Shown in pieces: positions 3,908 through 42,472 of a stretch of DNA of 64,000 nt. The translations under genes were made by a program, and so were the position numbers. Source of the DNA: a bacterium (lineage in GTDB: Bacteria > Ratteibacteria > UBA8468 > B48-G9 > DTJG01); assembly GCA_029552985.1 (NCBI GenBank), contig JAKPDB010000176.1, forward strand, positions 64,798-128,797. Reading direction: 5' to 3'. Positions within the stretch are counted from its first letter, which is position 1; the number at the start of each line of letters is the position of its first letter. The notes under the pieces were generated by a model. The model searched no databases. It had not been told where the DNA came from and was given only the letters and a program-made list of their open reading frames with translations.

Positions 3908-4688
3908 CGTTTCAATAATTGAAAATCCAAAAATCCAAGATATATCTGGCATAAGAGATAATCTTGAAAAGATTATTCAACAGATGGGTGCAAAAGTTAT
4001 TCCATGTTCTATGGACACAGATATTCTTATTTCACTTGGTGGAGATGGAACTGTTCTCAAAGGATTCAAAATGTTGCCATCTTTTGATATCCCACTTCTC
4101 GGACTGAACTTCGGGAAATTTGGTTTTCTTACAATAGATTGTAAAGATATGAAAAAAGTAATGCAGAATGTATTTTCTGGGAGTTTTCGTATTTCACCTC
4201 GTATGTATCTTGAGGGAAATATTATTGCTCCACGGAATGAAATGAAATTTGCTGGAAGGGCTTTGAACGAGATGATATTATTCAGAAAAGACATAAGAAT
4301 GGTTGAATTTGAATTAACTCTTGGCTCCACAGTGTTTTATTTTAGAGCAGATGGAATGATCATTAGTACTCCGACCGGTTCCACCGCACACGCTTTCTCA
4401 GCAGGAGGACCTATCGTCTTTCCAGAATCCAGGTCAATAATAGTTGTTGCATTTGCGCCCTTTACTGCGACATGGAGAAACTGCATATATGAAGGAAGAA
4501 GGTTAACACTTAAACCATCTCGAGATTGTGACATTATTATTGATGGCCAAGAAAGAATAGACCTTCAGAAACAACAATTACTTGAAATCAAACCCGGTCA
4601 AGAATCATTCAAATTAATGGTTCCTGAAAACTGGGATTTCTGGAATACATTAAAGGAAAAATTTTCATGGGGAAAGGGATTAATCTAA
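3894..4688 (+). CDS. nadK: NAD(+) kinase
   Basis: 264 aa. GGDGT motif (ILISLGGDGTVLKG), LGLNFGKFGFL, ISTPTGSTAHAFSAGGPIV. Confidence 0.9.
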   Translation: MKISNVSIIENPKIQDISGIRDNLEKIIQQMGAKVIPCSMDTDILISLGGDGTVLKGFKMLPSFDIPLLGLNFGKFGFLTIDCKDMKKVMQNVFSGSFRISPRMYLEGNIIAPRNEMKFAGRALNEMILFRKDIRMVEFELTLGSTVFYFRADGMIISTPTGSTAHAFSAGGPIVFPESRSIIVVAFAPFTATWRNCIYEGRRLTLKPSRDCDIIIDGQERIDLQKQQLLEIKPGQESFKLMVPENWDFWNTLKEKFSWGKGLI

Positions 4689-4918
4689 AAGTTAATAAAA
4701 ACAGGTGCAAAGGGTGTGGACTGTGTATTGAGGTTTGCCCTCAAAAAATTTTAATAATATCCAGATCATTTAATAAATTTGGCTATCATTTTGTTGAAGT
4801 GGCCAATGGTGATTGCAAAGGATGTAAAAGATGTGCTATTATTTGTCCGGATGCTGCTATTGAAATTTTTCTTGAACAGGATATATTAACAAAAACAATC
4901 TACAAGGAGAATAAATGA
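4667..4918 (+). CDS. Small 2x[4Fe-4S] ferredoxin-type protein
   Basis: 83 aa with two CxxCxxCxxxCP motifs (CKGCGLCIEVCP, CKGCKRCAIICP). Confidence 0.85.
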   Translation: MGKGINLKVNKNRCKGCGLCIEVCPQKILIISRSFNKFGYHFVEVANGDCKGCKRCAIICPDAAIEIFLEQDILTKTIYKENK

Positions 4919-5724
4919 AGATTGGTGTTATTCCAGATTGCTTTAGAATGCCAATAAAACAGGCGATAAGAAAAGCAGCAGAATTAAATCTTGATGGAAT
5001 ACAGCCATATGCGACCAGAGGCGATTTGTCTCCTGAAAATTTATCCAGAACTGGAAGGGATGAGTTGAAAAAATTTGTCTCTGACCTCGGACTGGAAATA
5101 TCAGCCATTGTCGGCGACTTTGGCGGGCACGGATTCACTGATTCAAAAACTGTTGATTGGCGTGTTGAAAAAACAAAAAAGGTCATTGACCTGGCTGTTG
5201 ACATCGGAGTCAATATCGTAACAACTCACATAGGAGTGGTTCCTGAAAATACACAGGCACCTGAATGGAAGATTCTTCTACAATCGTTACCAGAAATTGG
5301 AAGTTACGCATACAACAAAGGTGTTGTCCTTGCTACTGAGACAGGTCCTGAACCAGCTGAAATTTTGAAAAAATTGCTTGATGAATTAAATAATCCTGGA
5401 ATCAAAGTAAATTATGACCCCGCAAACCTTGTGATGGTCGCAGGCGATGACCCTGTAAAAGGCGTGCTTATTTTGAAAGATTATATTGTACACACACACG
5501 CAAAAGATGGCATAAAATTGCCTGACGAAAACGGAAAAAAGAAATGGAAGGAGCTTCCTCTTGGAGAAGGAAATGTAAATTTTCCTGAATATCTGAAAAC
5601 AATGAAAGACGTTGGATATAAAGGTTTTTTTACAATTGAAAGAGAAGTTGGTGATAATCCCGAGGCAGATATTATTAAAGCAATGGATTTCCTGAGAGAC
5701 CTTGGAAGAAAATTGAACTATTAA
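4915..5724 (+). CDS. Sugar phosphate isomerase/epimerase (xylose isomerase-like TIM barrel)
   Basis: 269 aa. The family pattern is spread along the sequence (LDGIQ...VTTHIG...LATETGPEP...VNYDPANLV...HAKD...TIERE). ATGA overlap with the ferredoxin gene. Specific substrate unknown. Confidence 0.7.
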   Translation: MKIGVIPDCFRMPIKQAIRKAAELNLDGIQPYATRGDLSPENLSRTGRDELKKFVSDLGLEISAIVGDFGGHGFTDSKTVDWRVEKTKKVIDLAVDIGVNIVTTHIGVVPENTQAPEWKILLQSLPEIGSYAYNKGVVLATETGPEPAEILKKLLDELNNPGIKVNYDPANLVMVAGDDPVKGVLILKDYIVHTHAKDGIKLPDENGKKKWKELPLGEGNVNFPEYLKTMKDVGYKGFFTIEREVGDNPEADIIKAMDFLRDLGRKLNY

Positions 5725-5725
5725 T

Positions 5726-6544
5726 ATGAAAAAGATCAGAAAACCGTCTGTAAGTGGCTACTTTTACCCTGGTGATAAAAATAAACTTGTGGATAATCTG
5801 AAGCAGTATATTGTTGCTGAAGGAGAGAAAATATCTGCGATTGGTGCAATTTGTCCTCATGCAGGGTACATATATTCAGGTAAAACAGCGGGCAAAGTTT
5901 ATGGCAAAATCATACCTCCTGAAACTGTAATTATCGTGGGGCCCAATCACCATGGATATGGAGAGCCATACGCGATTGACGAGAATGATTACTGGGAAAC
6001 ACCTCTTGGTTTAGTTGAAATTGATAATGAAATAAGAAAACAGTTACTTGCACACAGCAGATACCTGCAAACAGATTCAACTGCTCACATGGCTGAACAC
6101 TCGATAGAAGTCCAGGTTCCATTCCTACAGTATATCAAGCCAGATGTGAAAATTGTTCCTGTGGTGCTCTCAAGTTATCATGATGCAAACCCCTGGTATG
6201 AAATAGGATACACAATTGGCCTTGTACTTAGTGAATGCAAGACACATATAATGGTTATCGCCAGTTCTGATTTTACCCATTATGAACCAGCAGAAGATGC
6301 GGAAAAAAAGGATAAACTTGCAATTGGAGCAATTTTACAACTTGATGCCGATAATTTCTTAACAACAGTTTCGAAAAATGATATCAGTATTTGTGGATTT
6401 GTCCCTATAGTGACTGTAATTACAGCAGCGAAAGTTCTTGGTGCCAGAAAAGGTATACTTGTTGATTATTCGCACAGTGGTCAGGTTTCAGGAGATTTCC
6501 AGCAGGTTGTTGGATACGCAGGTATTATTCTTGACAAAGATTAA
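5726..6544 (+). CDS. MEMO1-family protein (AmmeMemoRadiSam system protein B type)
   Basis: 272 aa. PSVSGYFYPGD near the N-terminus, ICPHAGYIYSG, IVGPNHHG, SSDFTHY. This is the characteristic MEMO1/dioxygenase-like motif set. Confidence 0.85.
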   Translation: MKKIRKPSVSGYFYPGDKNKLVDNLKQYIVAEGEKISAIGAICPHAGYIYSGKTAGKVYGKIIPPETVIIVGPNHHGYGEPYAIDENDYWETPLGLVEIDNEIRKQLLAHSRYLQTDSTAHMAEHSIEVQVPFLQYIKPDVKIVPVVLSSYHDANPWYEIGYTIGLVLSECKTHIMVIASSDFTHYEPAEDAEKKDKLAIGAILQLDADNFLTTVSKNDISICGFVPIVTVITAAKVLGARKGILVDYSHSGQVSGDFQQVVGYAGIILDKD

Positions 6545-6558
6545 GGTAATGTTATAAT
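6531..6558 (+). promoter_or_regulatory. Sigma70-type promoter for the riboswitch-led operon
   Basis: TTGACA (6531-6536), 16-nt spacer, TATAAT (6553-6558). It overlaps the end of the upstream CDS and lies ~15 nt before riboswitch stem P1. Confidence 0.7.
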
Positions 6559-6573
6559 TTTATTTAGAAAATT

Positions 6574-6744
6574 TCGCAGGTGCCTGTAGCGGGCCTAATA
6601 GGGAAGTCTGTGAAAATCAGACACGCTCCCGGCGCTGTGACCTGGTTCACACCCCTTGTGTGAACAACCCGGTCTGCGGTTCCACTGTCCGTAATGGATG
6701 GGAAGGATGACCAGGGCATCAGGAAGTCAGAAGACCTGCCTGCG
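6574..6744 (+). promoter_or_regulatory. Cobalamin (B12) riboswitch aptamer
   Basis: P1 pairs TCGCAGG (6574-6580) with CCTGCGA (6738-6744). Conserved core strings: AATAGGGAAGTCTGTGAAAATCAGACACGCTCCCGGCGCTGT, CCACTGTCC...GGGAAGG, and the B12-box-like AAGTCAGAAGACCTGCC. The block is GC-rich in an AT-rich genome. Confidence 0.9.
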
Positions 6745-6806
6745 AGACGGCGTAACGAATTCCTGCGGAGTTCAGGAATCGTTTAAGGGTGAAGAAATCA
6801 GGGTGC

Positions 6807-6834
6807 AGCCCGCCGAATGGCGGGCTTTACTTTT
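6807..6834 (+). terminator. Intrinsic terminator (riboswitch expression platform)
   Basis: 8-bp GC-rich stem AGCCCGCC / GGCGGGCT with a GAAT loop, then TTACTTTT. It lies between the aptamer and the RBS AAGGAGG (6846-6852). The 3' arm can alternatively pair with GCCCGC (6835-6840). Confidence 0.7.
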
Positions 6835-6856
6835 GCCCGCTTAACAAGGAGGAAGC

Positions 6857-7567
6857 ATGAAAGCAGGTGAGGGCAAAGGTTTTACCCTGATAGAGCTGCT
6901 CGTGGTAATCGCAATCATTGCGATACTGGCAGCAATGTTATTGCCAGCATTGTCAAAGGCAAGGGAAAAGTCAAGAGCTGCTGTCTGTATGGGCAATTTA
7001 AAACAAATTTACCTTGCGTTTTCCATGTATGTTCAGGATAACGACGAATTTTTTCCACCGGCCTATTACTGGTCTTTTACCGGTGAGATTGACTGGGATT
7101 TTGCGACAGATGACTGGATAAACTGGCGGCCTGGAATTATTGGAATTTATCTCAATGAACAGGTGTTTCAGTGCCCTTCAAGATTTAAACTAAAGTCCTA
7201 TGATAAACCCTTTACTGGCTATGCCTATAATGCCACATATATCGGCGGTGGATATTCTGTGTGGGATGGTCAAGCAGATTCTCCAGCAAAACTCAGTAGG
7301 ATTCAGAATCCGTCTCAAACAGTCCTTGTAGCAGATAGCGCTATATGGTCGTCATGGACCATGGAAACAATTGCAAACAATTATCTAAGAGCTCCAGGGG
7401 ACATTTATCATTTTGGTCCAAATGTGCATTTCAGGCATAATGGCAGAGCAAATGTACTTTTCTGTGATGGGCACGTCGAATCAATTGGAACAAAATATAA
7501 CATTGACCCGAACGATAATACACTGGGCGATCTTTCTAAAGACGACTCATTATATGACCTGCAATGA
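6857..7567 (+). CDS. Prepilin-type N-terminal cleavage/methylation domain protein of the H-X9-DG (DUF1559) family
   Basis: The N-terminus [32 protein letters not shown] is a class III signal with Glu at +5. The C-terminal [17 protein letters not shown] gives exactly H-X9-DG. Confidence 0.9.
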
Positions 7568-7573
7568 AATGTA

Positions 7574-8479
7574 ATGTGCTATAATCAACTTATGAGCAAA
7601 AATTTCTATCAATTATTAACAGAAAAAAAGGTACTGGTGGCAGATGGCGCCTGGGGAACAGAAATAGCAAAAAATCAGCAGATAAAATTTGCGTATCCTG
7701 AAATATTGAATTTGACACATCCTGAAATAATAGAAAAATTGGCGGCATCCTATGTGGAAGCAGGCGCTGATATCATACTTACCAATACATTTGGAGCAAA
7801 TATTTTGAAATTAAAAAAATATGGCGCAGAGGATAGATTAAATGAAATTAACAAAAAGGGTGTTGAAATATCACTCAGGGTTGCAGGAAACAAAATTGTT
7901 CTTGCTTCAATGGGACCGACAGGGCAGCTGCTTGAACCGTATGGAAACATCCCTGAAAAGGAAATGATAAATTGCTTCGAACAACAGGCAGAGATACTTA
8001 TTAAATCTGGAGCCGATGGCATAGTGATAGAAACAATGAGCGATGTAAACGAAGCTCTATGCGCTTTAAAAGCGGTAAAAAATATTACCGATAGAACCGT
8101 AGTTGTCTGTATGACATTTAACAAAACTGTAAATGGGTATAGAACATTAATGGGAACACGTGCTGATGAATGCGCAATTCTTCTTAAAAAATATGGAGCA
8201 AGTGTCGTTGGAGCAAATTGTGGTTCAGGAATTGAAGATTTTGTATCCATCGTTAAGGAAATGAACAAAGTCAATCTACCAGTATGGGTGAAACCAAATG
8301 CTGGAATTCCAAAACTGGTAAATGGAAAAACCGTATACCCTCACACTCCTGAACACATGGCAGGTTATGTCCCTGAATTAATAAAGGTAGGTGCTTCAGT
8401 CATTGGTGGCTGCTGTGGAACAACCCCGTTGCACATTCGTGAAATAAAAAAGGCCGTTTCGATTTATTTGAAGCAATGA
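7574..8479 (+). CDS. Homocysteine S-methyltransferase domain protein (stand-alone MetH-N/MmuM-like domain)
   Basis: ~300 aa. LVADGAWGTE, ILTNTFGAN, and zinc-ligand motifs GANCGSG and IGGCCGTTPLHI. No pterin- or B12-binding domain follows. The start may be ATG 7592 (MSKNFYQLL). Confidence 0.85.
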   Translation: MCYNQLMSKNFYQLLTEKKVLVADGAWGTEIAKNQQIKFAYPEILNLTHPEIIEKLAASYVEAGADIILTNTFGANILKLKKYGAEDRLNEINKKGVEISLRVAGNKIVLASMGPTGQLLEPYGNIPEKEMINCFEQQAEILIKSGADGIVIETMSDVNEALCALKAVKNITDRTVVVCMTFNKTVNGYRTLMGTRADECAILLKKYGASVVGANCGSGIEDFVSIVKEMNKVNLPVWVKPNAGIPKLVNGKTVYPHTPEHMAGYVPELIKVGASVIGGCCGTTPLHIREIKKAVSIYLKQ

Positions 8480-9309
8480 AAAAAATTTCCTGTTTTACTA
8501 TTGTGTTAATGTTAATCCTGTTTTCGTCGCAGCAACTGTCGGGAGCAAACGAAAAATATCCTGCACGAGTAGTTTCTCTTGGTCCATATGTAACAGAAAA
8601 CCTTATCTTGCTGGGTGTGAACAAAGAAATTGTTGGTGTCACCATACATGAAAAAGAAGAAATAAAAAAAGATCGCGAAATTATTGGCACTCTGCTTGAT
8701 CCAAATCTTGAAACAATTCTGAAACTAAAGCCAGACATTGTAATAGCCAGCAAGGAAGGAAACCGCAAACAAAGTGTAGAAAAAATTCAGAAACTTGGAA
8801 TCAGGGTAGAAGTTCTTGATGAAGTGATCACGTACAATGATTTGAAAAAAAATTTTTTTACTCTTGCCAGAATATTCGGTAAAGAAAATATTGCCAGAGA
8901 TATTGTTTCAGATATAGAAAAGCAACTTAAACAATATAACAGCCAAAAACAGAAATCAAAAAAGAAAATATTCTGGCAGCTTGGAACAAAACCGCTGGTG
9001 ACTGCAGGCCGTGATACATACTACAATGAATTATCAATTTATGCAGGAGCAAAAAACATTTTCGAAGATATGAAGACCAAATATATCACAATCAATATAG
9101 AAGAAGTGGTCAAAAGAAATCCAGATATCATTATTGCCATGGGCATGGGTGAAAATGAATATGTCATCAATTTTTGGGATAAATTCAAAGATATCGAGGC
9201 AGTCAAAAGAAACAAAATTTTTCGCGTTGATGACTACATGTTTTGCAGTCCAACACCAGCAAGTTTTTTGCAATCAATAAAATTAATAACAAATTTTTTA
9301 AACAATTGA
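8476..9309 (+). CDS. ABC transporter periplasmic binding protein, BtuF/FecB-like (cobalamin/siderophore class)
   Basis: Signal peptide, then RVVSLGPYVTENLILLG...LKPDIVIAS, typical of class 8 binding proteins. Positioned directly before the FecCD permease and ATPase, downstream of a B12 riboswitch. Confidence 0.8.
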   Translation: MKKISCFTIVLMLILFSSQQLSGANEKYPARVVSLGPYVTENLILLGVNKEIVGVTIHEKEEIKKDREIIGTLLDPNLETILKLKPDIVIASKEGNRKQSVEKIQKLGIRVEVLDEVITYNDLKKNFFTLARIFGKENIARDIVSDIEKQLKQYNSQKQKSKKKIFWQLGTKPLVTAGRDTYYNELSIYAGAKNIFEDMKTKYITINIEEVVKRNPDIIIAMGMGENEYVINFWDKFKDIEAVKRNKIFRVDDYMFCSPTPASFLQSIKLITNFLNN

Positions 9310-10286
9310 AAAAAATATCTTTTTTAGCAATTTTTCTTTTTGCGGCAGCATCTGTAATAATTGGTCTCTCCTCAGGCACAGAGAACTATCCACTGACCAA
9401 AATTATAAAAATACTTTTTAACCCCCCGTACAATACATTCGAAAGAACGATACTACTGCAAATCCGATTACCGAGAATATGGTGTGGATTTCTGACTGGC
9501 TCTGGTCTGGCAGTATCTGGTCTCATTTTGCAGGCGATTTTGAAAAATCCACTGGCAGAAAGTTACACGTTGGGCGTGTCAGGTGGCGCAAGTTTAGGAA
9601 TCGCGTTCGGAATCGTATCCGGACATATGATGGTTGTACCGGTTTTTGCGTTCGCTGGCAGTGTCGTTTCTACTTTTATTCTTCTGTTGATTGCGTCTTT
9701 AAGAAAGATGTCATCAGGGACATTACTCTTGCTTGGTATTATGCTCAATTTCATTTTTTCTTCATTTTCACTTTTGATCATCACCCTGTTACAGAAAGAA
9801 AGGTTTATGGAAGCAGTGGTTTGGTTTATGGGAAATCTGAGTAGTTACCATCCAGAGACCCTGAAAAGCGCCCCATTGTTTCTCATACCAGCATATTTAA
9901 TCACATGGTTATACTGGAAGCAACTAAACATATTTTCTCTTGGAGAGGAAAAAGCCATCACGCTTGGCATTGATCCTGAGAAAAAAAGATACATGTGGCT
10001 TACCCTGACAGGACTTATTACAGGATACTGCGTATCGCTGGCAGGACTTGTTGGATTTGTGGGACTTGTGATACCACACACCGTAAGGATTCTGGTTGGT
10101 ACAGACCATAAAAAAACCATTCCGGCTGCGATACTGGCTGGAGGAAGTTTTCTTATCATTGCAGATACTTTGGCAAGAACTATTGTAAAACCTATCGAAA
10201 TTCCTGTCGGCGTAATCAGCGGATTTTTCGGCGGGATATTTTTTGTTTTGATCCTTTTAAAAACCTCAAGAAGACAAAAATGGTAG
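9243..10286 (+). CDS. FecCD-family ABC permease (BtuC-like)
   Basis: Polytopic membrane protein with the motif LQIRLPRIWCGFLTGSGLAVSGLILQAILKNPLAESYTLGVSGGASLG. The true start is possibly TTG 9306 (LKKISFL...), overlapping the upstream TGA. Confidence 0.85.
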   Translation: MQSNTSKFFAINKINNKFFKQLKKISFLAIFLFAAASVIIGLSSGTENYPLTKIIKILFNPPYNTFERTILLQIRLPRIWCGFLTGSGLAVSGLILQAILKNPLAESYTLGVSGGASLGIAFGIVSGHMMVVPVFAFAGSVVSTFILLLIASLRKMSSGTLLLLGIMLNFIFSSFSLLIITLLQKERFMEAVVWFMGNLSSYHPETLKSAPLFLIPAYLITWLYWKQLNIFSLGEEKAITLGIDPEKKRYMWLTLTGLITGYCVSLAGLVGFVGLVIPHTVRILVGTDHKKTIPAAILAGGSFLIIADTLARTIVKPIEIPVGVISGFFGGIFFVLILLKTSRRQKW

Positions 10287-11083
10287 TTCTTGAATTCAAA
10301 AATGTCAGTGCGGGTTATGGTAAAAACATCATCATTCATAACATTAGTTTTCAGATGAAAAAGGGCCGATTTCTTGGAATCATCGGTCCTAACGGAAGTG
10401 GAAAATCCACGCTCTTGAAAACTGCAACAAAAGTGATAAAACATTACACAGGAACAATCCTGTTTAACGGCGCAAACATAAAAAACATTCCAGTCAAGGA
10501 ATTTGCTCAAAATATCTCTTTTTTACCATCAGACATTGAAATTGCTTATCCTTACACAGTTAAAGAACTACTTCTCATGGCTAGATATCCTTTCATATCA
10601 GGTTTTCGTAGTCCAGCATCAAAAGATATCGCAATAGTAAATTCAATAGCCAAACAGATGGGACTGGCACAATTTATGAACAGAACCATTCTTGAAATGT
10701 CAGAAGGAGAAAAACAGAGAGTGCTTTTAGCGCAGTGTCTTGTTCAGGAACCAAGACTCGTGATTTTCGATGAGCCAACTGCGCATCTTGACATTGGTTA
10801 TCAATTTTCATTTCTTGACCTTTTGAAGCAATATCAGGAACATTCATCTCTTTCGATTCTTGCTGTTTTACACGATTTAAATCTCGCTTCGCAATATTGC
10901 GATGAGCTCATACTGCTAAACGAAGGTTCAGTGGTAATTTCGGGAGATCCCCAACAGGTTCTACAGTATAAAATTCTTGAAGAAGTTTATCATACAAATG
11001 TCCTGGTATATCCTCATCCTATTTCAGGTAAGCCCTATGTTTTCGGAGTTCCTGCATCCTGGAAAAATTTGACAAAAAAATAA
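10280..11083 (+). CDS. ABC transporter ATP-binding protein (BtuD/FecE-like)
   Basis: Walker A GPNGSGKST, signature-like MSEGEKQR, Walker B LVIFDEPTAHLD, H-loop VLHDLN. Confidence 0.9.
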   Translation: MVVLEFKNVSAGYGKNIIIHNISFQMKKGRFLGIIGPNGSGKSTLLKTATKVIKHYTGTILFNGANIKNIPVKEFAQNISFLPSDIEIAYPYTVKELLLMARYPFISGFRSPASKDIAIVNSIAKQMGLAQFMNRTILEMSEGEKQRVLLAQCLVQEPRLVIFDEPTAHLDIGYQFSFLDLLKQYQEHSSLSILAVLHDLNLASQYCDELILLNEGSVVISGDPQQVLQYKILEEVYHTNVLVYPHPISGKPYVFGVPASWKNLTKK

Positions 11084-11134
11084 TCATCGTATTTAATATG
11101 CCAGTTCAGATATTGTTTTTAACTGGAGGAAAAC

Positions 11135-11902
11135 ATGAAAATTGCAATTCAACTGTACACAATAAGAGAGCACTTTAGTTCTCAGGAAGAGATTGTAAAA
11201 GCAGCGAAAAAACTATCCGGCATTGGATATAAATACGTAGAAACCGCAGGCACAGCAAATCTGCAGACAAAACAGTTCAAACAAATCATGGATGACGCCG
11301 GACTGACCGTTTGTTCAAGTCATGTGGGTGTTGATGCAATCTTGAAAGAACCAGAATTAGTAATTGAGCAACAATTAATCCTTGATGCACGAACCTGCAA
11401 TGCAAGCTGGCCAGGTGCAGAAACAAAAGACATGGAAGGCATAAAGAAAACAGCAGAAAAAATTGCAAAGGCTGCGGAAATCTTGAAAAAAAATGGACTG
11501 ACACTTGGTTATCATAATCATGGAATAGAATTTGCCAGATGCAATGGCAAAACATGGCTTGAGATAATTATGGAAACAGCAAGCCCGGGAATCCTTACTG
11601 CGCAGATTGACACATACTGGGTCCAATATGGTGGTGGGGACCCTGCCTACTGGATTAGCAAATATTCTCAAAGATTAAACTCAATACACTTTAAGGACAT
11701 GGGGATGTCTGAAGATAATAAGCAAGCTATGGTTCCAGTGGGCACTGGTAATTTGAACTGGACAAAAATTCTTACTGCTGCCAGAGATTCAAGTGCAAAA
11801 TATGCAATTATGGAAATGGATTTTTCACCTCTTGTCCCACTGTGGGACGCAATTAAAATAAGTTTTGAGAATATGAAGAACTGGGGCTTGGAAACTGATT
11901 GA
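11135..11902 (+). CDS. Sugar phosphate isomerase/epimerase (xylose isomerase-like TIM barrel)
   Basis: 255 aa, RBS GGAGG 8 nt upstream. The family pattern (YKYVE...GYHNH...IDTYW...HFKD...MEMD) resembles the 4915-5724 product. Confidence 0.7.
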   Translation: MKIAIQLYTIREHFSSQEEIVKAAKKLSGIGYKYVETAGTANLQTKQFKQIMDDAGLTVCSSHVGVDAILKEPELVIEQQLILDARTCNASWPGAETKDMEGIKKTAEKIAKAAEILKKNGLTLGYHNHGIEFARCNGKTWLEIIMETASPGILTAQIDTYWVQYGGGDPAYWISKYSQRLNSIHFKDMGMSEDNKQAMVPVGTGNLNWTKILTAARDSSAKYAIMEMDFSPLVPLWDAIKISFENMKNWGLETD

Positions 11903-21565: not shown

Positions 21566-21987
21566 AAAACAATATTTTTTTTGAAACAGAACAGAACAGT
21601 GAAAATGCTCTCAGTAGAATCAATATTATTAATTTTATCGATGTAGCTCTTGTTCTCGTCATAATATTGATGATTGTATCTCCAATGATAGAGCAGGGCA
21701 TGGAAGTGAAACTGCCAGTTTCTGGCCCAAGTAAAATGGCTGTCCAGAGAAGTGTTATTCTAACTGTAGCAAAAAATGGAGTAATTTTCTGGGGAAATCA
21801 GCAGGTGCGGATTGAAAACCTTGAAAATATCGTTCGCAGTACGATGTCGCAAAATCCAGAACTTGGAATTGTCATAAAAGGAGATAGATTCATTACATAT
21901 CAGGAATTAATCAGCGTTCTGGATGTTTTGAAACGTGCTGATGTAAAGAAAATAGGTCTTGCCACACAGGCAAAAACTGAAAAATGA
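21562..21987 (+). CDS. tolR: TolR (ExbD/TolR family)
   Basis: 141 aa. Single N-terminal TM (INFIDVALVLVIILMIV) plus an ExbD-like periplasmic domain. ATGA overlap with tolQ. Confidence 0.85.
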   Translation: MKNNIFFETEQNSENALSRINIINFIDVALVLVIILMIVSPMIEQGMEVKLPVSGPSKMAVQRSVILTVAKNGVIFWGNQQVRIENLENIVRSTMSQNPELGIVIKGDRFITYQELISVLDVLKRADVKKIGLATQAKTEK

Positions 21988-22778
21988 AAAAGGCATTACT
22001 GGCTTCAGTATTCATCCATGCACTACCTATTATTCTCATTGTCCATAGTTCAATGAAAACAAAGCAAGTAGTACCAGTATATGTGGTTGATTTAATGAGT
22101 TTACCACCTGCTTTAGAAATTTCAAATCATGTGATATCACCATTCAAACCCGAACATGCTGAAGCATCAATAGTTAGTATACCTCATAAAGATTTTCCAA
22201 TTCAAACAGCCACACATGCGGAAAAAACAGGTGGTGAAGGAATTGTCGGAACGACATCTTCTGTTGAAAAATTTTCGCCTGAGGAATTTATCGCTGACAT
22301 AAACAAAAAATTATCCAGAACCGCATCATCTACTAAATCAGAAGATGCATCATCTTCTGGTAAATCAACATCTGCTCAGAACGTTCCGCAAGGAAAAACT
22401 TCTCTTGCCTCAAAAATTTTTCCACTAACAAATACCGAAGTAGAGACAGGTTCATCCGTGGGCATTCAGACGTCAACATTACCTGCGGATAACATCATAC
22501 CTGTTGAATATCTTGAGAATATTAAATTAATTTTGCAAAGAAAGTGGAAAGTGCCAAAAGGGAAAAGTTATTCTTCAACTTCTGTTGTGTCATTTAAAAT
22601 CAAAAAAGACGGATCAGTTGAAGAAATCATACTTGAAAAAAGTTCGGGATTTAAGGAATTTGACGAGAGCGCTATTAAGGCAGTGAAAGAAGCATCGGGC
22701 ATACCACCACTTCCAAGAACTTATAAATCAGAATATCTTGAAATTGCTGTAAAATTCAACACAAAGGGGATAGAATGA
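21984..22778 (+). CDS. tolA: TolA-like protein with TonB_C-type C-terminal domain
   Basis: N-terminal TM, a low-complexity Ser/Thr-rich linker, and a C-terminal domain (LQRKWKVPKG...VSFKIKKDGSVEEIILEKSSGFKEFDESAIKAVKEA..IPPLP). Sits in the tol cluster. Confidence 0.65.
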   Translation: MKKALLASVFIHALPIILIVHSSMKTKQVVPVYVVDLMSLPPALEISNHVISPFKPEHAEASIVSIPHKDFPIQTATHAEKTGGEGIVGTTSSVEKFSPEEFIADINKKLSRTASSTKSEDASSSGKSTSAQNVPQGKTSLASKIFPLTNTEVETGSSVGIQTSTLPADNIIPVEYLENIKLILQRKWKVPKGKSYSSTSVVSFKIKKDGSVEEIILEKSSGFKEFDESAIKAVKEASGIPPLPRTYKSEYLEIAVKFNTKGIE

Positions 22779-24695: not shown

Positions 24696-25522
24696 AGAAC
24701 CGTCAAAATATTCTATTATCTTTCCTTTTGAGCCTTGGATTGTGTGGGTGCACGAGTATTGCAATGAAGGATGATGTTACTTTATTAAAGGAGGAGATTG
24801 AACAGAAATTGGCAACAAGTGAAACAACCAATTCAACTAAATTTCAAGAAGTCGGTGCCAGGATAGAACAGTTACAACAAAGTCAGGAACAGCAGCAAGC
24901 ATCCTTGCTCAAACTGGCAGAAGATTTAAAAACTCAGATTAACGATGTAAAAATTGCATTTGATGACTCTGTTCAAAACCAGAGAAAAGAATTTGAAATT
25001 TTCAGAAAAAATCAGGAAGAAAAAAATAATCAATTTACCCAGGACATTGAAACACTGAGGAAATCTCAAAACGATCTGATAAAAACCTCTGTTTCTCTGA
25101 CAGATTCAATGGTCAATTATCAGAAAGATCTTCTGGGCATAAAAACCTCCATGCAACAGATTGCCACTGCAATGGACTCCTTAAGTACAAAAGATTACAT
25201 TCAAAAAGAAGAATTTGAAAATACAAAGAAAGAGATTTACCAGCAAATAGAGAAAATACAGCAGGTCCTTGTTAGTGAAATCACAAGACAGGAAAGTGAA
25301 ATTTTTGCTCTCAAACAGGCATTAAAATTAGTAGAACCCAGAAAGAATGAAAGTTCCTCCCAGGCCAAAGAATCTGCTGAAAAAGCCTATTATGTTGTCA
25401 AAAAGGGCGATACACTTTCTTCTATTGCAAAAAAATATAGTACAACAAAACAAAAAATAAAAGAAGCGAACAAAATGAAGACCGATAGCGTTAAAATTGG
25501 ACAAAAACTTTTGATACCATGA
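24692..25522 (+). CDS. Coiled-coil lipoprotein with C-terminal LysM domain
   Basis: Lipoprotein-like signal (LSLGLCGC), ~200 aa of Q/E/K-rich heptad-like sequence, and a C-terminal LysM (YVVKKGDTLSSIAKKYSTTKQKIKEANKMKTDSVKIGQKLLIP). Occupies the position held by cpoB/ybgF in classical tol-pal operons. Confidence 0.75.
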   Translation: MKNRQNILLSFLLSLGLCGCTSIAMKDDVTLLKEEIEQKLATSETTNSTKFQEVGARIEQLQQSQEQQQASLLKLAEDLKTQINDVKIAFDDSVQNQRKEFEIFRKNQEEKNNQFTQDIETLRKSQNDLIKTSVSLTDSMVNYQKDLLGIKTSMQQIATAMDSLSTKDYIQKEEFENTKKEIYQQIEKIQQVLVSEITRQESEIFALKQALKLVEPRKNESSSQAKESAEKAYYVVKKGDTLSSIAKKYSTTKQKIKEANKMKTDSVKIGQKLLIP

Positions 25523-26322
25523 AATATTTTCTTGCATTTTTAATTGGCACATGTTTTGGAAGTTTCGCAAATGTTTGTATATACAGATTACCAAGAAATA
25601 AATCAATCATTTTTCCTGGTTCTTTCTGTCCTAAGTGCCGTCATTCCATACCATGGTATTACAATATCCCGATTCTAAGTTATATCATTCTACGGGGTAG
25701 ATGCCACTATTGTAAAAAAGTCATTTCCCCAAGATATCCTGTCATTGAATTCACTATGGGACTTTTAACTCTATTGCTTTACCAGAAGTTCTGGGTGGCA
25801 AATTTTCCATGCGTTTTTTTGTTTTACTTCATTTTTACTCTCGGGCTTGTCATCATAAGTGGCATTGACTTTGAAACTTTTCTTGTGCCAGATGTCATTG
25901 TACTTCCCCTTATACCATTGGGGTTGATAGGAGCCTTATTGTGTGAGAATTTCTTTTTTCCTCAAAGCGGAAATTGGTATATGGCAATAAGGGCATTGTA
26001 TAGCGTTACCGGAATTTTCACAGGAGCACTGCTTGTAGCATTTCTTGCGATCATCGGCAAAATCATATGGAAAAGAGAAGCCATGGGTGGTGGGGACCTT
26101 AAACTTCTTGCAGCAATCGGTGCATTTCTTGGATGGAAAGGAGTATTTTTATCTATTTTCTTTGGTTCGATTCTTGGCACTATCATAAGCCTTATGCTGA
26201 TATACTCAAAAAAGAAAAAATGGGACGATTATGTTCCATTTGGTCCTTATCTGGCAATAGGTGCCATTGTTGCTATGCTGTATAAAGGTAGTTATTTTCT
26301 TTCGCTTTACTTTATTCCCTGA
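25519..26322 (+). CDS. pilD: Prepilin peptidase / N-methyltransferase (A24 family)
   Basis: 267 aa. N-terminal Cys pairs (CPKC...CHYC), polytopic, catalytic-Asp context GISGIDFETFLVPD and GGGDLKLLAAIGAFLGW. Confidence 0.9.
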   Translation: MKYFLAFLIGTCFGSFANVCIYRLPRNKSIIFPGSFCPKCRHSIPWYYNIPILSYIILRGRCHYCKKVISPRYPVIEFTMGLLTLLLYQKFWVANFPCVFLFYFIFTLGLVIISGIDFETFLVPDVIVLPLIPLGLIGALLCENFFFPQSGNWYMAIRALYSVTGIFTGALLVAFLAIIGKIIWKREAMGGGDLKLLAAIGAFLGWKGVFLSIFFGSILGTIISLMLIYSKKKKWDDYVPFGPYLAIGAIVAMLYKGSYFLSLYFIP

Positions 26323-30230: not shown

Positions 30231-30857
30231 TTATATTCTTTTCTTTTTTACCTTGCTGAAAACAAACCAGAAAATCATCACCACAATGAAAAAGAAAATC
30301 AGATACTCATATTTCCTGTAATAAATCTCAATGCGTGACCAGTTTTTACCAAAGAAAAAGCCAATATAAGAAAGAAAATATGCCCATATTAGTGAACCAA
30401 TAAAGGTAAATATGCAGAATTTACTGAAATTGGTTTTTGCAACACCAGCAGGCAGTGAAATAAATGTCCTGACACCAGGCGTTAATCTTGAAAAGAAAAC
30501 CACAGGGTCTCCGTATTTTCTAAACCATCGTTCAGCCCTGTCGTAATCATCTTCTGAAATTAAAAGAAATTTCCCGCGATTTTTTATCCATTGTCGTATC
30601 AAACGGTCTTCAAGCCAGAAACCAAGGAAATATGCGCCAACTGAGCCCACAAGATTTGCGAGCGCCCCAACCAGAGAAAGAATATGAAGATTCATTTTGT
30701 TAATCGAAACAAGATAACCGGCAAATGGCATTGTAATTTCTGAAGGAATTGGAATCAGCGCTGATTCAAACGTCATCAGAACAAAAACTCCCAGATAACC
30801 AGTTTTTTCAATGATTGTTATTATGATGTTTGCGAGAAAAGAAAGTATGTGTTCCAT
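30231..30857 (-). CDS. DedA-family membrane protein
   Basis: 208 aa polytopic. GYLGVFVLMTFESALIPIPSE and FFSRLTPGVRTFISLPAGVAK motifs. Its stop abuts the pcm stop with no spacer. Confidence 0.85.
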   Translation of the reverse strand: MEHILSFLANIIITIIEKTGYLGVFVLMTFESALIPIPSEITMPFAGYLVSINKMNLHILSLVGALANLVGSVGAYFLGFWLEDRLIRQWIKNRGKFLLISEDDYDRAERWFRKYGDPVVFFSRLTPGVRTFISLPAGVAKTNFSKFCIFTFIGSLIWAYFLSYIGFFFGKNWSRIEIYYRKYEYLIFFFIVVMIFWFVFSKVKKKRI

Positions 30858-31900
30858 TATCTGTCAACAGGTACCTTTAATTTTGAGTCAGGCGTGACAA
30901 TTTTTCCTGATTTAATATCCTGCTCTGTAATGACTGCCATCAAAATTTCTTTTTTCCCATAGCGGTCGTGGTCATATATGATAAAGATTTTCCCATCTTC
31001 AGTTTCAATCGCATCAGGATATGAAACATTTTCCCTTTCATCAAGAAGAAGTTGATAACGCCATGTTCTTCCATCGTCTTCAGAAAGCATAGCAGTCAGG
31101 TGAGAACGAATTTTGTCCTTGAAACCATAGTGGTTTATCAACAACAGGTTGCCAGAGTTTAATCTTCTGCTATGAAATCTTGAACCAGGGCCAGCAATTT
31201 TAGAAGGACATCCCTTTGTCCATGTTCTTCCTCTATCATAAGAATAACTTTCGCCTATTCCATAGGACGTTCTCACAAGCATCCACAAAACACCATTTTT
31301 CAATTCCACTATCATGTGTTCATCACATGTCCTGTCAGGAACATCAGCGCTCCCAAGAAACGTGATCGTTTTTCCGCTGTCAGTTGATACATAAACATTT
31401 GAAAATCTTAAATTGCTCATTTCAGGCAACAATGGCTGCCTGTTCCAGACAGCGATTGGAAATAGCCATTCACCGCTTGAAAGCACAAGTGGCTTATTCA
31501 TCATAATACCGTCAGCAATTCTTCGCGGCTTACTCCATACAAATTCACCAGATACTTTTTCAGCAGTTACTGCCCAGACACCTGCTTTTCCATCCCACCA
31601 GTTTTTACTCATTGCCCAGAATAGCCATAATTTACCAGTTGGGTCAGTCCATAAACACGGGTCAAAGGCGCGTATTTCATCAGGCGGATCAATCACAATT
31701 ACTGGTTCACTCCAGCTACTCCCCTTATCTTTGCTATTGACAACAATCACGTAATTGCAAGGTCCTTCTCCATCTCCACCACTGTACCAGGTTGCCCACA
31801 ACAACCCATCAGGAGTCATTGCAATTCCTGGAATTCCCTGCCACCTTCTGTTTTCTCGTCTGTATTGTGAACCAGGAGACAATAAAATATACTCACACAT
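30857..31900 (-). CDS. BNR/Asp-box repeat sialidase-like beta-propeller protein
   Basis: Four Asp-boxes (SKDKGSSW, STDSGKTI, SYDRGRTW, SEDDGRTW). No obvious signal peptide. Substrate unknown. Confidence 0.7.
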   Translation of the reverse strand: MCEYILLSPGSQYRRENRRWQGIPGIAMTPDGLLWATWYSGGDGEGPCNYVIVVNSKDKGSSWSEPVIVIDPPDEIRAFDPCLWTDPTGKLWLFWAMSKNWWDGKAGVWAVTAEKVSGEFVWSKPRRIADGIMMNKPLVLSSGEWLFPIAVWNRQPLLPEMSNLRFSNVYVSTDSGKTITFLGSADVPDRTCDEHMIVELKNGVLWMLVRTSYGIGESYSYDRGRTWTKGCPSKIAGPGSRFHSRRLNSGNLLLINHYGFKDKIRSHLTAMLSEDDGRTWRYQLLLDERENVSYPDAIETEDGKIFIIYDHDRYGKKEILMAVITEQDIKSGKIVTPDSKLKVPVDR

Positions 31901-31932
31901 AAATTTTTCCTGCTATTTTTTAAAAATAACGG

Positions 31933-33222
31933 TTATTGAAATCTTGCTGACCAGTCGGGTTTTGTCCAACGTACAATAATTCTTGTTCCTGGCCCAGTGC
32001 CCAAACCAGGGTCTTCAGGAAAACTTATCTCTCGTAGCGCCACATCATAATGAACAATTGCATTATTAATCAGAGTAAGATTGTTAGAAACAATACCTCC
32101 AAAAAATTGACTGTTATTAGCAAGGGTAATGCTTGAAGTAGGAGCATAAATTACGCCATTAAATGCCTGCGCATTATTGGCAAGCGTCAAATTGGTGGAA
32201 CTTGCAACATAAATCCTTAAATTTCCTGTTGTCTGTGATGTGTTATTAATCACAGAATTATTTGCAAGAGTTGGAGTAAAAGAAGTGCCCTGATTACCCA
32301 AATACCAGATAACAACACCATTGTTTTGTATAATTACCTGAGTATTATTCGAAAGAGTCAAAGATGATTCAATGTAAAACCTCGTATTTCCTGTAATGTA
32401 CATAATAGAATTATTGTTTAGGGTAATACTTTTAAACCTGAAATCACCACCAGAAATAGTAATAACCTTGTTATTGCCCACAGTCAGTCGACCATTTGAA
32501 ATTGTGTAGTTACCTGTAATTCTTGAATCACCTTGTACAGGATATGGTAAATTCATTAAATCCGACGGCACAGTGACATCTGGTAAGTTGTTAAGTGGGT
32601 CATCGAAACTATGATATAAATCACTATCTGACACAGTAGCACCGTTTCCAAGATACAAATATTGTGGACCATCTTCAACCATTGCAGTTCCATAAATGTG
32701 TGCATTATTATAAAGAGTCATTGTGCCCTTACTGCCAGTATCTCCATGATTTCCTCTATTTGAAGGTCCATATGGACCACGTCGCGAATCATAACTGTCG
32801 ACCCAGGCATTATTATAAATTGTTACTGATTGATGCCCGAATAAACCCTGCCCGAAAGAACCACCTGCACCACCACCTGAACCCATAGGCCGATACGTTG
32901 TAACTGAAATTCTTGTTTCCTGGCTGCCATATCTTCCTGTGGATATAAAAACTATTGTTTCTCCCTGAACTGATTCAGATACAACAAATGTGCCGCCTCC
33001 AAAACTTACAGGGTTTGTTGGTGGATGCCATGACTCATTTGCTCTTTTATTTGCAAATGCCCAGTTTGCACCTGCCTCTGCGATATAAAATGACTTTTCT
33101 TTATGGTACCTCTTCATTGCTGCAATCTGTTCATTGCCACCAAGATATAAAATACCCATTCCCATAATCAATGCCACAATCACAAAAATAATTGCCATTG
33201 GCAAAACATATCCTTTTTTCAT
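31933..33222 (-). CDS. PilX-like N-terminal anchor + Asn-rich beta-helix repeat protein (putative pilus-associated / tip protein)
   Basis: The N-terminal hydrophobic segment (LPMAIIFVIVALIMGMGILYLGG) is followed by YIAEAGANWA, as in PilX_N. The C-terminal half repeats the motif x-T/L-L-A/S-N-N-x (LTLSNNTQV, PTLANNSVI, LTLANNAQAFNGVIYAP, ITLANNSQFFGGIV, LTLINNAIVHYD). Located after the minor pilins. Confidence 0.55.
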   Translation of the reverse strand: MKKGYVLPMAIIFVIVALIMGMGILYLGGNEQIAAMKRYHKEKSFYIAEAGANWAFANKRANESWHPPTNPVSFGGGTFVVSESVQGETIVFISTGRYGSQETRISVTTYRPMGSGGGAGGSFGQGLFGHQSVTIYNNAWVDSYDSRRGPYGPSNRGNHGDTGSKGTMTLYNNAHIYGTAMVEDGPQYLYLGNGATVSDSDLYHSFDDPLNNLPDVTVPSDLMNLPYPVQGDSRITGNYTISNGRLTVGNNKVITISGGDFRFKSITLNNNSIMYITGNTRFYIESSLTLSNNTQVIIQNNGVVIWYLGNQGTSFTPTLANNSVINNTSQTTGNLRIYVASSTNLTLANNAQAFNGVIYAPTSSITLANNSQFFGGIVSNNLTLINNAIVHYDVALREISFPEDPGLGTGPGTRIIVRWTKPDWSARFQ

Positions 33223-33687
33223 CTATGAATTCCTCATATAAACAGAAAAAGAACCTGCAATCAACCTCGTTCCTTTACCAACTTCAATATTTACCACTAC
33301 ACGGTCGTCCTCAATATCAAAAGAAACATCCTGTAATGTCGTAATCACTTTCTCTACTGAATTTCGACTGACATTTTTCCATAGAAGTACTGATGGATTT
33401 GATGGGTCAGGATAAAACTCATGAATCCATGATTGATTCTGTCCGACAGCCCTGATATGGTTTTCACTTAATATTTCCACGTTACTTGCTTCTTCAATAA
33501 CACTTTTCAGCACATGCGATGCAAGGTCGAAATCAACCTGTAAGGATGCAATCTCATTGCTCCTTTTCCATTCCTTATAAGATTCTATAAGAATACTGCT
33601 TGATGCAAATATCGCAAGAGAGCCAAGCACAAGAACCACCGTTAATTCAATAAGCCCAAGCCCTCTTTTATTTCTTGTAAGTTTCAT
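33223..33687 (-). CDS. Minor (pseudo)pilin with prepilin-type N-terminus
   Basis: KRG|LGLIELTVVLVLGSLAIF, a class III signal with Glu+5. 154 aa. Adjacent to the other pilin-like genes. Confidence 0.75.
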   Translation of the reverse strand: MKLTRNKRGLGLIELTVVLVLGSLAIFASSSILIESYKEWKRSNEIASLQVDFDLASHVLKSVIEEASNVEILSENHIRAVGQNQSWIHEFYPDPSNPSVLLWKNVSRNSVEKVITTLQDVSFDIEDDRVVVNIEVGKGTRLIAGSFSVYMRNS

Positions 33688-34046
33688 GGTTGCGCAATCA
33701 TCGTTGAAATACTGACAATTTCTTTACCGTCCGGTACCTGAATTTTTACTGTCACGGTTTTCAATGGCAATGTTTGGTCAGGCACAACATTTGTAATCCT
33801 TTGCACCTGAATGTTTCCAACTCTTATATTTTCAGTTTCGTTTTGAATTTGCGAATAGTCAGCGGATTTTATCATCTCAATTTTTTCAATTGCACACCAA
33901 GTCGCAAGCCGGGTGATATCAGATTGGCTAAGATTTCTGCTACTGGCAAAATAAAAGGCAGATGTTCCTATCAGGGCAATTGCAATAATCACAAAAGCAA
34001 GAAGAAATTCAATAATTGTAAAGCCCGCATGAAACCTTTTTTTCAT
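33684..34046 (-). CDS. Minor (pseudo)pilin with prepilin-type N-terminus
   Basis: HAG|FTIIEFLLAFVIIAIALIG with Glu+5. 120 aa. Overlaps both neighbours by 4 nt. Confidence 0.75.
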   Translation of the reverse strand: MKKRFHAGFTIIEFLLAFVIIAIALIGTSAFYFASSRNLSQSDITRLATWCAIEKIEMIKSADYSQIQNETENIRVGNIQVQRITNVVPDQTLPLKTVTVKIQVPDGKEIVSISTMIAQP

Positions 34047-36818: not shown

Positions 36819-37343
36819 TTACTCCAGTTTTTTAATACCTGAAACTTTTAAACTCACTGATATTCCATCTTCGAAACTAGTAATTTCTACAGAATCTATT
36901 TTAAGAAATTTCTGCGAAGTTTCTATTCCATTTATGAAACTGAGAATACCAGAGAAATTCCCCTTGCAGGATACATTCCAGGTGTAATATTTCTCATCGA
37001 CCTTTTCAGCCGGCTGGAAACCTGTAATCTCTAAGTTCAATCTTTCTGCAATTGAAGATATGTGCTGAAAAACCATTAAATTTGGATCGTATCCAGTGTT
37101 AATCCAGAGAAATTGGTTGAGTTTATTTCCTGCATTATTAATGGTTTTTCTTATCGTATTAACATAGTCAGGATAGTTTTTCAGTTTCATATAGTCGTAT
37201 TCAAGAGATGTTTTCTCATTCCTGTATTGCTGCAAAATTGTTTGCTGCTGCCTTATCACGATATTATTGATAATCAACCAGGTGCTACCGTAAAGAACAA
37301 GCATAATCACAAAATGAGTTCTTATTGATGATACCTTTTCCAT
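36819..37343 (-). CDS. pilO: PilO-like pilus assembly protein
   Basis: 174 aa with a single N-terminal TM. Size and position between the PilN-like and PilP-like genes. No strong motif. Confidence 0.5.
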   Translation of the reverse strand: MEKVSSIRTHFVIMLVLYGSTWLIINNIVIRQQQTILQQYRNEKTSLEYDYMKLKNYPDYVNTIRKTINNAGNKLNQFLWINTGYDPNLMVFQHISSIAERLNLEITGFQPAEKVDEKYYTWNVSCKGNFSGILSFINGIETSQKFLKIDSVEITSFEDGISVSLKVSGIKKLE

Positions 37344-38935: not shown

Positions 38936-38958
38936 ATTAACCTGATAGCCCTCTGGCT

Positions 38959-39357
38959 TTATAACCCAGAATAACTTATTGTTGCACCACCGGCATTAGT
39001 ATAGGTCATTGTCACTGTTACACCTGCTGCTGTTCCGGTTCCAGTGGTTGTTGCAGTAAATCCTGAGGCAGAAACCCCACTTAATGTATAATCCGTAAAA
39101 TATTTATTACCTGCAGTCTCAACATTGAGGTCTGACTTGTTGCTTGTATAGGTGTTATTTTCAGCATAATAAACCTTCTGAGCAGTAAGAACCGAACCAA
39201 GAAGCGCTGCGCCTTCTGATGCTGCTGCCTTCTTAATATTGCTTCTGTAAATTGGAATCGCAACAGCAGCCAGAATCCCAACAATAATCACCACCACCAT
39301 CAGCTCAATGAGAGTAAAACCCTTTTTTGAATTTTTTGATTTCCTCACTTCAATCAC
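38959..39357 (-). CDS. pilA: Type IV major pilin
   Basis: GTG start. The 13-aa leader ends KKG|[24 protein letters not shown]. 132 aa. The C-terminal part is Thr/Gly-rich ([20 protein letters not shown]). Confidence 0.9.
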
Positions 39358-42469: not shown

Positions 42470-42472
42470 TTT

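Follow-up and report, generated by a model that had tools for sequence, protein, structure and literature searches.

The window analyzed here, a 64,000-nucleotide (nt) stretch of contig JAKPDB010000176.1 from a Ratteibacteria genome, contains a five-gene operon that lies behind a cobalamin (B12) riboswitch and opens with a prepilin-type DUF1559/H-X9-DG protein, referred to below as the pilin-like protein. All five genes are on the + strand and either overlap or are separated by gaps of no more than 6 nt. The lead gene (6857-7567), with matches to PF07963, PF07596, TIGR02532 and TIGR04294, encodes a protein of 236 amino acids (aa) and is followed by a stand-alone homocysteine S-methyltransferase module that resembles the N-terminal domain of MetH (7574-8479; PF02574, 243 bits), for which independent gene calls offer an alternative start at 7592. 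The last three genes encode a BtuF-like periplasmic binding protein (8476-9309), a BtuC-like FecCD permease (9243-10286), whose true start is possibly at ~9306, yielding a 326-aa product as called in L097 (L and a number denote locus labels of this comparison), and, by domain searches, an ATP-binding cassette (ABC) ATPase of the BtuD/FecE class (10280-11083). The first-pass annotation, made from the sequence alone, described five tightly packed genes with these products, and domain searches and independent gene calls agree with it; gene calls on public contigs that encode an identical pilin-like protein, L097 among them, match the same layout. A Peripla_BP_2 protein, a FecCD permease and an ABC ATPase within one operon make up a BtuFCD-type (type II) ABC importer set. 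The best NCBIfam matches are BtuF (PRK03379; 111 bits, curated equivalog cut-off 234) and BtuC (PRK03784; 211 bits, curated cut-off 334); both fall below their curated cut-offs, and the cobalamin specificity of the importer rests on the riboswitch.

The regulatory region begins with a sigma-70-type promoter (6531-6558, +), assigned by consensus match only: TTGACA, a 16-nt spacer and TG-TATAAT, as read from the sequence, agree with the consensus at 12 of 12 positions and include an extended -10 TG. The cobalamin aptamer starts 3 bases from the promoter end and occupies 6561-6757 (+; Rfam RF00174, clan CL00101). It scores 91 bits with the Rfam covariance model (gathering score 31.5; E = 3.2e-21) and covers all of model positions 1-189 of 189, with the B12-box core AGUCAGAAGACCUGCC aligned. 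Between the aptamer and the regulated gene sits an expression platform of the intrinsic-terminator type (6807-6836, +), in which AGCCCGCC and GGCGGGCT form an 8-bp stem with 7 GC pairs (6807-6826) and a T-rich tail runs to ~6836. The Shine-Dalgarno sequence GGAGG (6848-6852, +) lies 4 nt ahead of the ATG at 6857. The first-pass annotation had placed the promoter at 6531-6558, the aptamer at 6574-6744, inside the RF00174 match, and the terminator-type platform at 6807-6834; the 12 consensus matches, the RF00174 search that it proposed and the GC-rich hairpin with its T-rich tail bear out all three. It also took a B12-independent transcript of the prepilin-type gene to speak against its reading. 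Since the gap between the terminator and the start codon is only 30 nt, with no room for a promoter, the first gene has none of its own downstream of the switch. We regard B12 regulation of the operon as nearly certain.

DUF1559/H-X9-DG proteins are among the largest families without an assigned function in the Planctomycetes-Verrucomicrobia-Chlamydiae (PVC) group and neighboring phyla, where a genome encodes dozens to hundreds of them. The pilin-like protein starts with a class III signal peptide, a short basic leader that ends in Gly (MKAGEGKG) and is followed by FTLIE, with Glu at +5, and a hydrophobic helix, and it keeps the full pilin assembly signature (G-1, F+1, E+5); PF07963 scores 31.3 bits and TIGR02532 32.4 bits (cut-off 16.3). 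The PF07596 match (45.8 bits, gathering 23.3) spans only profile positions 2-53 of 268 and marks a short, divergent member of the family, and TIGR04294 matches residues 191-210 (31.3 bits, cut-off 19) with the motif H194-X9-D204-G205. In an AlphaFold2 model built with 81 homologs (predicted local distance difference test, pLDDT, 90.1; predicted TM-score, pTM, 0.81), a predicted N-terminal helix of 51 residues (11-61) leads into a predicted beta-rich head of 13 strands and ~175 residues, the plan of a type IV pilin. The alpha-1 helix matches solved pilins both in a PDB profile search and in Foldseek. Beyond the pilin helix the PDB profile search matched nothing, Foldseek against the PDB with the full-length model found the helix only and no match at E <=1e-3, and the separately folded head (pLDDT 87.6, pTM 0.86) gave a best E of 0.95, its best matches having TM <0.2. 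The head-domain alignment reveals two almost invariant cysteines, C44 and C106, which fit an extracytoplasmic disulfide, as well as conserved motifs of the clade's own: WD[FY], one opening RP[FY], and LxDLSxDDxxYDL. A residue signature distinguishing riboswitch-positive from riboswitch-negative relatives was sought and set aside, as only D81, L177, L226 and L235 differ and the negative set is small and mixed.

Relatives of the pilin-like protein number in the thousands in Omnitrophota, Ratteibacteria and Armatimonadota, and its association with the riboswitch recurs among them. In seven metagenomic contexts, where homologs at 83% to 52% identity are found amid unrelated flanking genes, a cobalamin aptamer (70-111 bits) lies directly upstream on the same strand in every case (7/7). 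The pilin-like gene stands alone behind the switch in L004; L007 has the order aptamer, cobA/btuR, pilin-like gene, btuFCD; and in L009 btuFCD comes after a second DUF1559 gene and two modules, a methyltransferase and a pterin-binding one. The Armatimonadota locus L013 (52% identity, beside a glycoside hydrolase family 36 melibiase) was considered as a negative-control paralog outside B12 metabolism and was dropped when an 87-bit aptamer turned up there.

A survey queried with an alignment of the head domain only, so that the generic pilin helix would not match, yielded, at one genome per species, 80 loci with 84% to 28% identity, of which 76 have enough upstream sequence to be assessed. Aptamers were detected with an nhmmer profile built from Rfam-confirmed aptamers and iterated once, with Rfam run on weak and negative loci; the aptamers aligned too unevenly in MAFFT to support a custom covariance model, and the iterated nhmmer search with Rfam validation took its place. 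All 16 sampled nhmmer-only positives (16/16) were confirmed by Rfam at 75-127 bits. Start codons were set by a simple rule, and taxon labels are those of the records. An aptamer at or above threshold lies just upstream on the same strand in 61 of the 76 loci; a cobalamin-clan match below threshold occupies the exact expected position in four more (L026, L053, L068 and L073), the contig end truncates the aptamer in one (L018), and one (L082) has a weak match 1.2 kb upstream. The frequency of the aptamer rises with similarity to the window protein: 10/10 loci with at least 60% identity to its head domain, 17/17 at 45-59%, 23/24 at 38-44% and 16/25 below 38%, or 50 of 51 at 38% and above. A median of 113 nt separates the end of the aptamer from the start codon, and the long gaps that were examined (L027, L046) hold a cobA- or pduO-type gene. 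When the aptamer profile was run over 637.6 kb on both strands, it produced 55 on-site matches and 1 off-site match, a ratio that excludes chance pairing.

By record title, these loci come from Omnitrophota, Ratteibacteria, a TA06 bin, many Armatimonadota, Zipacnadia, WS1, Planctomycetaceae, Pirellulales and Victivallaceae, so that the linkage spans at least five phyla; the labels Clostridiaceae and Bacillota on two records may be binning errors. Riboswitch-linked members from Planctomycetaceae and Pirellulales are L083, L086, L088, L092 and L095. Three Rfam models describe the aptamers involved, RF00174, RF01689 and an RF01482-like class. Because the linkage spans phyla, differing flanks and three aptamer models, common descent of one arrangement does not explain the pattern. 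The Omnitrophota genome QZM4.bins.109 supplies a control of its own: the riboswitch accompanies a copy 69% identical to the window protein (L019) but not a 36%-identical paralog (L091). Some genomes have two switched copies (e.g., L013 and L062), and where the next gene is far away or on the opposite strand (L004, L033, L036, L044 and L084) the pilin-like gene is the only plausible target of the switch. A terminator-like platform is present in 32 of 56 loci, and in most others the aptamer lies within ~50 nt of the Shine-Dalgarno sequence; the CAGCCCGCC...GGCGGGCTTTTT hairpin is kept in the orthologous loci L016-L025, and the terminator is retained across the whole Omnitrophota/Ratteibacteria clade. 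The first-pass annotation had called for such a survey and considered that a linkage unique to this genome would count against it; the seven contexts and the 61 loci dispose of that possibility.

The four aptamers below threshold lie at 4595-4735 (L026), 4690-4786 (L053), 4700-4796 (L068) and 4743-4884 (L073), and score 31-34 bits with RF01689 (threshold 36.5) or 39-41 bits with RF01482 (threshold 50). Because such elements score below Rfam gathering thresholds, standard annotation would miss B12 regulation in these lineages. The Ratteibacteria locus L073 (3199-10433) contains two tandem aptamer/H-X9-DG units in the order aptamer-like element, H-X9-DG gene (in two open reading frames, ORFs), cobA, second aptamer-like element, second H-X9-DG gene, cobQ, a PF01902 gene and btuFCD.

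The partners of the pilin-like gene are genes of corrinoid transport and salvage. In 23 loci, BtuF or BtuC homologs share the strand of the pilin-like gene and lie within operon range, and several riboswitch-negative relatives also adjoin btuFCD-type genes (L072, L073, L075 and L085). A CobU gene follows at 1-3 nt in L019, L021 and L022; further immediate neighbors are CobT in L021, CobQ in L073, CobA/BtuR in L020, L027 and L073, and a PduO-type adenosyltransferase in L046. Many loci are monocistronic. In Armatimonadota, genes for PEP-CTERM surface proteins lie 4-73 nt after the pilin-like gene, and in L050 and L053 this co-operonic neighbor is a BtuJ-like DUF4465 protein, which matches solved B12-binding proteins (PDB 9HMU, E = 1e-31; BtuJ2, 9I2L, E = 8e-12). 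DUF4465/BtuJ proteins are experimentally validated extracellular B12 binders (PMC13398666, PMC13616437). No TonB-dependent receptor or BtuB occurs among the recurrent neighbors in the related operons examined.

Other PEP-CTERM neighbors, in clusters c1 and c3 (L057, 5682-7163; L052, 5616-6470; L056, 7180-7779), have no sequence match in the PDB and no Pfam match beyond the PEP-CTERM anchor, that of L057 having no Pfam match at all; in some loci a BtuJ-like DUF4465 protein accompanies them, and they are candidates for further B12-capture proteins.

The riboswitch linkage, conserved over phyla, rearrangements and aptamer classes, together with the corrinoid transport and salvage partners, argues that the pilin-like protein has a role in corrinoid acquisition or salvage, which we hold to be very probable; the corresponding proposal of the first-pass annotation gains strong comparative-genomic support. 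The best-supported function is that of an extracytoplasmic accessory protein, made when B12 is scarce and acting before BtuF-BtuCD. In the mechanism that we propose, the aptamer would, when cobalamin is plentiful, let the terminator form and stop transcription (an OFF switch), and the five genes would be transcribed when B12 is scarce. A prepilin peptidase, PilD, would cut the leader, and the mature protein would join a (pseudo)pilus of the type II secretion system (T2SS)/type IV pilus (T4P) class, probably as one of its minor subunits or at its tip; this (pseudo)pilus would work through a secretin. The disulfide-containing head would bind corrinoids, either cobalamin or incomplete forms such as cobinamide, outside the cytoplasm and pass them to the BtuF-like protein and then to the BtuCD-like importer; that the ligands may include incomplete corrinoids is suggested by the partners CobU, CobT and CobQ. 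By the secretin route, a molecule that exceeds the size limit of ordinary porins would cross the outer membrane without a TonB-dependent receptor. We infer binding, pilus mounting and secretin passage from four features: the protein carries the pilin signature, the machinery is encoded nearby, B12 is large in comparison with porins, and the receptor is missing. Direct corrinoid binding is somewhat favored, and the head, if it does bind corrinoids, would use a modeled fold without a solved relative. A fibre-mounted crossing of the outer membrane in place of BtuB is a tentative idea at this point. Taken whole, a B12-repressed corrinoid-acquisition operon with a pilin-type capture protein is the explanation that we consider, on balance, probable.

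Components that such a mechanism would call upon are encoded in the same window. The PilD/GspO prepilin peptidase (25519-26322, +), which the first-pass annotation had already placed at these positions, is identified by PF06750 and PF01478 and is the presumed processing enzyme. A secretin of the GspD/PilQ type (34043-35740, -) is a candidate outer-membrane conduit; PilO, PilN and PilM together with a 125-aa major-pilin-like gene at 38959-39321 (36819-39321 in all, -) may provide the assembly platform and a fibre subunit. Further candidate parts are a PilC/GspF platform protein and a PilB/GspE-type assembly ATPase (41243-44157, -) that is split over two overlapping frames. The window also encodes a SPOR/T2SSB-like protein, a minor pilin and a Tol-Pal-type cluster, to which a TonB_C-domain protein (21984-22778) belongs and which indicates a diderm envelope. 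A 358-aa T2SSE ORF (42473-43549) was considered as PilT and rejected, NCBIfam assigning it to the C-terminal two thirds of a GspE/PilB-type assembly ATPase. The N-terminal part of this split ATPase (42473-44157, -) lies in the other frame and has an MshE-type cyclic di-GMP-binding domain; a frameshift, an error in sequencing or a gene that is truly split could account for this arrangement. The pilus/T2SS-type cluster ends, at 30857-33687 (-), with a minor pilin, a DUF7305 protein and a BNR-repeat (sialidase-like) protein.

Several observations weigh against this explanation. In Pfam, NCBIfam, PDB profile and Foldseek searches the head domain showed no resemblance to any known B12 binder or solved structure, and the protein falls, by sequence and fold similarity, outside the known B12-binder families BtuF, BtuG, BtuH, BtuJ/DUF4465, BtuM and the transcobalamin type; it has in common with accessory B12 binders that it is encoded in B12-riboswitch-regulated uptake loci. 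Nine loci of the survey, all distant relatives, have no aptamer, and six of these nine clear negatives align over the first ~170-180 residues only, without the clade's C-terminal tail. Of the 59 loci whose downstream sequence reaches at least 2.5 kb, 21 have an adjacent transporter and about two thirds have none, so that coupling to BtuFCD would often occur in trans. All loci come from metagenome-assembled genomes. The window contains no retraction ATPase. In favor of the explanation, as the first-pass annotation had stated, no TonB-dependent receptor is found in the five operon genes or among the window ORFs of at least 560 aa, all seven of which (7/7) were annotated, the rest of the genome lying outside the search. 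Because the plug and 22-strand barrel domains are absent from the locus, the pilin-like protein is no homolog of BtuB and could substitute for it in function only.

The rival that survives best casts the pilin-like protein as a periplasmic helper, anchored in the inner membrane and never polymerised, that binds and hands off corrinoids or serves as a chaperone for BtuF/BtuCD or for salvage, with the outer membrane crossed by way of an unlinked receptor such as a BtuB encoded elsewhere. The same genomic-context evidence fits it, N_methyl + SBP_bac_10 proteins of Tuwongella were recovered in detergent-soluble membrane fractions (PMC8567305), the missing retraction ATPase agrees with it, and, since the receptor search covered the operons and the window, a BtuB elsewhere in the genome is possible. 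However, the full pilin assembly signature would be superfluous in a simple membrane anchor, and no linked operon contains a TonB-dependent receptor. In addition, the surface-sorted PEP-CTERM proteins that share operons with the pilin-like gene in Armatimonadota, the BtuJ-like binder included, point to an extracellular relay and an open outer-membrane slot. We judge such a helper rather unlikely, though it is the main competitor of the capture-protein explanation.

The remaining two readings are less likely than the helper. The pilin-like protein could be a secretion or display adaptor, a minor pseudopilin induced by B12 starvation that would fit a T2SS-type machine for the export or display of corrinoid scavengers (BtuJ-like and other PEP-CTERM proteins) and would not itself bind corrinoids. 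T2SS minor pseudopilins do contact cargo, and the Armatimonadota PEP-CTERM genes, DUF4465 included, lie immediately behind the pilin-like gene; however, PEP-CTERM proteins are normally handled by Sec plus exosortase, many loci are monocistronic, and the window and the Omnitrophota/Ratteibacteria operons encode no candidate cargo, only btuFCD, cobU, cobT, cobQ or the methyltransferase, which makes an adaptor quite improbable. A protein with no specific B12 role, whether an envelope or adhesion factor coupled to B12 status or a passenger kept beside riboswitches by descent, would be in keeping with a corrinoid link drawn from genomic context and with a hugely expanded family found beside many kinds of genes (PMC8567305), yet it is very improbable given a linkage that persists over phyla, unrelated flanks and three aptamer models, scales with similarity to the window protein, involves specifically corrinoid transport and salvage genes, and has chance excluded by the ratio of on-site to off-site matches.

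The neighborhood of the operon and of its relatives has further features. A Memo-like gene ends 17 nt before the aptamer, and two xylose-isomerase-like TIM-barrel (AP_endonuc_2) genes, at 4915-5724 and 11135-11902, flank the operon, the second beginning 51 nt past the btuD-like gene, with which it might be co-transcribed; this AP_endonuc_2/Memo-like layout is syntenic in L001-L003 and, by shared gene clusters, also in L016-L017. The methyltransferase module (7574-8479) has intact MetH-type homocysteine-binding and zinc-binding cysteine motifs. In L009 (7637-9350) such a module is followed by a separate pterin-binding module, and probably likewise in L023 (2848-4576); together they resemble a split MetH without its B12-binding and reactivation domains, yet under a B12 OFF-switch. 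A gene of the PF01902 family (Diphthami_syn_2, ATP-pyrophosphatase-type) recurs in L029 (6705-7391), L073 (7153-7806), L083 (6145-6888) and L086 (6199-6864), loci of Ratteibacteria, Planctomycetaceae and an unclassified bacterium (L029); we know of no role assigned to this family in cobamide metabolism. In Planctomycetaceae, a 103-141-aa protein of cluster c13 (L083, 5829-6182; L086, 5761-6186; L092, 1982-2293) is encoded 27-115 nt downstream of the riboswitch-controlled pilin-like gene, its L086 member having no significant Pfam match. A BNR protein gene comes after the pilin-like gene in L069. In L007/L008, a match to the group II intron catalytic domain (9534-9617; RF00029, 46 bits) lies just past the btuD-like gene, and the first 13 nt of a 539-aa ORF (9605-11224) without a Pfam match fall within it.

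The operon is of a known kind, and by its defining features the lead gene belongs to the prepilin and DUF1559/H-X9-DG families. Literature searches, which did not extend to subscription journals, found no published link of the DUF1559/H-X9-DG/SBP_bac_10/prepilin-type family to B12, in keeping with the view of the first-pass annotation that none had been described; in the literature, DUF1559 proteins are expanded, expressed and membrane-fractionating and have no assigned function (PMC8567305). The riboswitch-linked clade gives this large and enigmatic family its first testable role, in B12 capture, and a single specific, colored and easily assayed ligand makes the question of how these bacteria take up large nutrients directly testable. 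If the capture-protein explanation is true, the B12 field gains a class of uptake components with a new fold and a new export route, and a suggestion of how diderm bacteria might import cobamides without BtuB. For annotation, genes labeled "DUF1559 domain-containing protein" behind a cobalamin aptamer could be flagged as candidates for corrinoid acquisition; many Armatimonadota aptamers fall just under Rfam thresholds. A broader and speculative extension is that DUF1559/H-X9-DG proteins overall are ligand-binding subunits, exchangeable for one another, of a route by which a pilus or pseudopilus imports nutrients through secretins. If it exists, this import route would serve Planctomycetota, Armatimonadota, Omnitrophota and related bacteria as an alternative to TonB-dependent receptors, and the riboswitch-linked clade would be its cobamide-specific member, the first in the family with an assignable ligand.

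Like the E. coli-type BtuB-TonB and BtuFCD system, the operon combines a cobalamin riboswitch with a Peripla_BP_2 protein, a FecCD permease and an ABC ATPase; unlike that system, it is led by a prepilin-type gene, and a TonB-dependent beta-barrel is absent from the operon, the window and the related operons examined. The Bacteroides proteins BtuG, BtuH and BtuJ are likewise extracytoplasmic accessory proteins from riboswitch-regulated loci beside btuFCD, induced in Bacteroides by B12 limitation (PMC13398666, PMC13616437), and a BtuJ homolog shares an operon with the pilin-like gene in L050 and L053. By contrast, they are lipoproteins with beta-propeller or beta-jelly-roll folds and demonstrated B12 binding that feed BtuB, whereas the pilin-like protein, known here from sequence and a model, has a prepilin leader, a pilin-type helix and a head without a structural relative.

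Type IV pilins and T2SS pseudopilins such as PilA, GspG and ComGC share with the pilin-like protein the G|FTLIE leader, Glu+5, a helix of ~50 residues and a globular head, and PilD and assembly genes lie nearby in the window. By contrast, the window head is larger (~175 aa) and matched no solved pilin head, and its gene is under a vitamin riboswitch in a transporter/salvage operon rather than in a pilus operon. Competence systems take up DNA with a pilus and secretin, a periplasmic binding protein and an inner-membrane channel. The proposed logic would be analogous, from fibre capture through the secretin to a periplasmic binder and an inner-membrane transporter, except that here the substrate would be a 1.3-kDa cofactor and that no retraction ATPase is found in the window. 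In Planctomycetes, pili-like fibres of the crateriform structures bind the nutrient dextran and have been put forward as its uptake route (PMC5394234), the players in which are still described as unidentified (PMC12673574); they resemble the proposed system in these respects and differ from it in that none of their protein components has been connected with DUF1559, nor has a small-molecule ligand been suggested. With the generic DUF1559/SBP_bac_10/H-X9-DG expansions of the PVC group, the pilin-like protein has in common an N_methyl leader, the N-terminal region of PF07596 and the motif of TIGR04294; it differs in matching only 53 of 268 PF07596 profile positions, and the riboswitch-linked clade is set apart by motifs of its own and by a riboswitch that distant paralogs lack.

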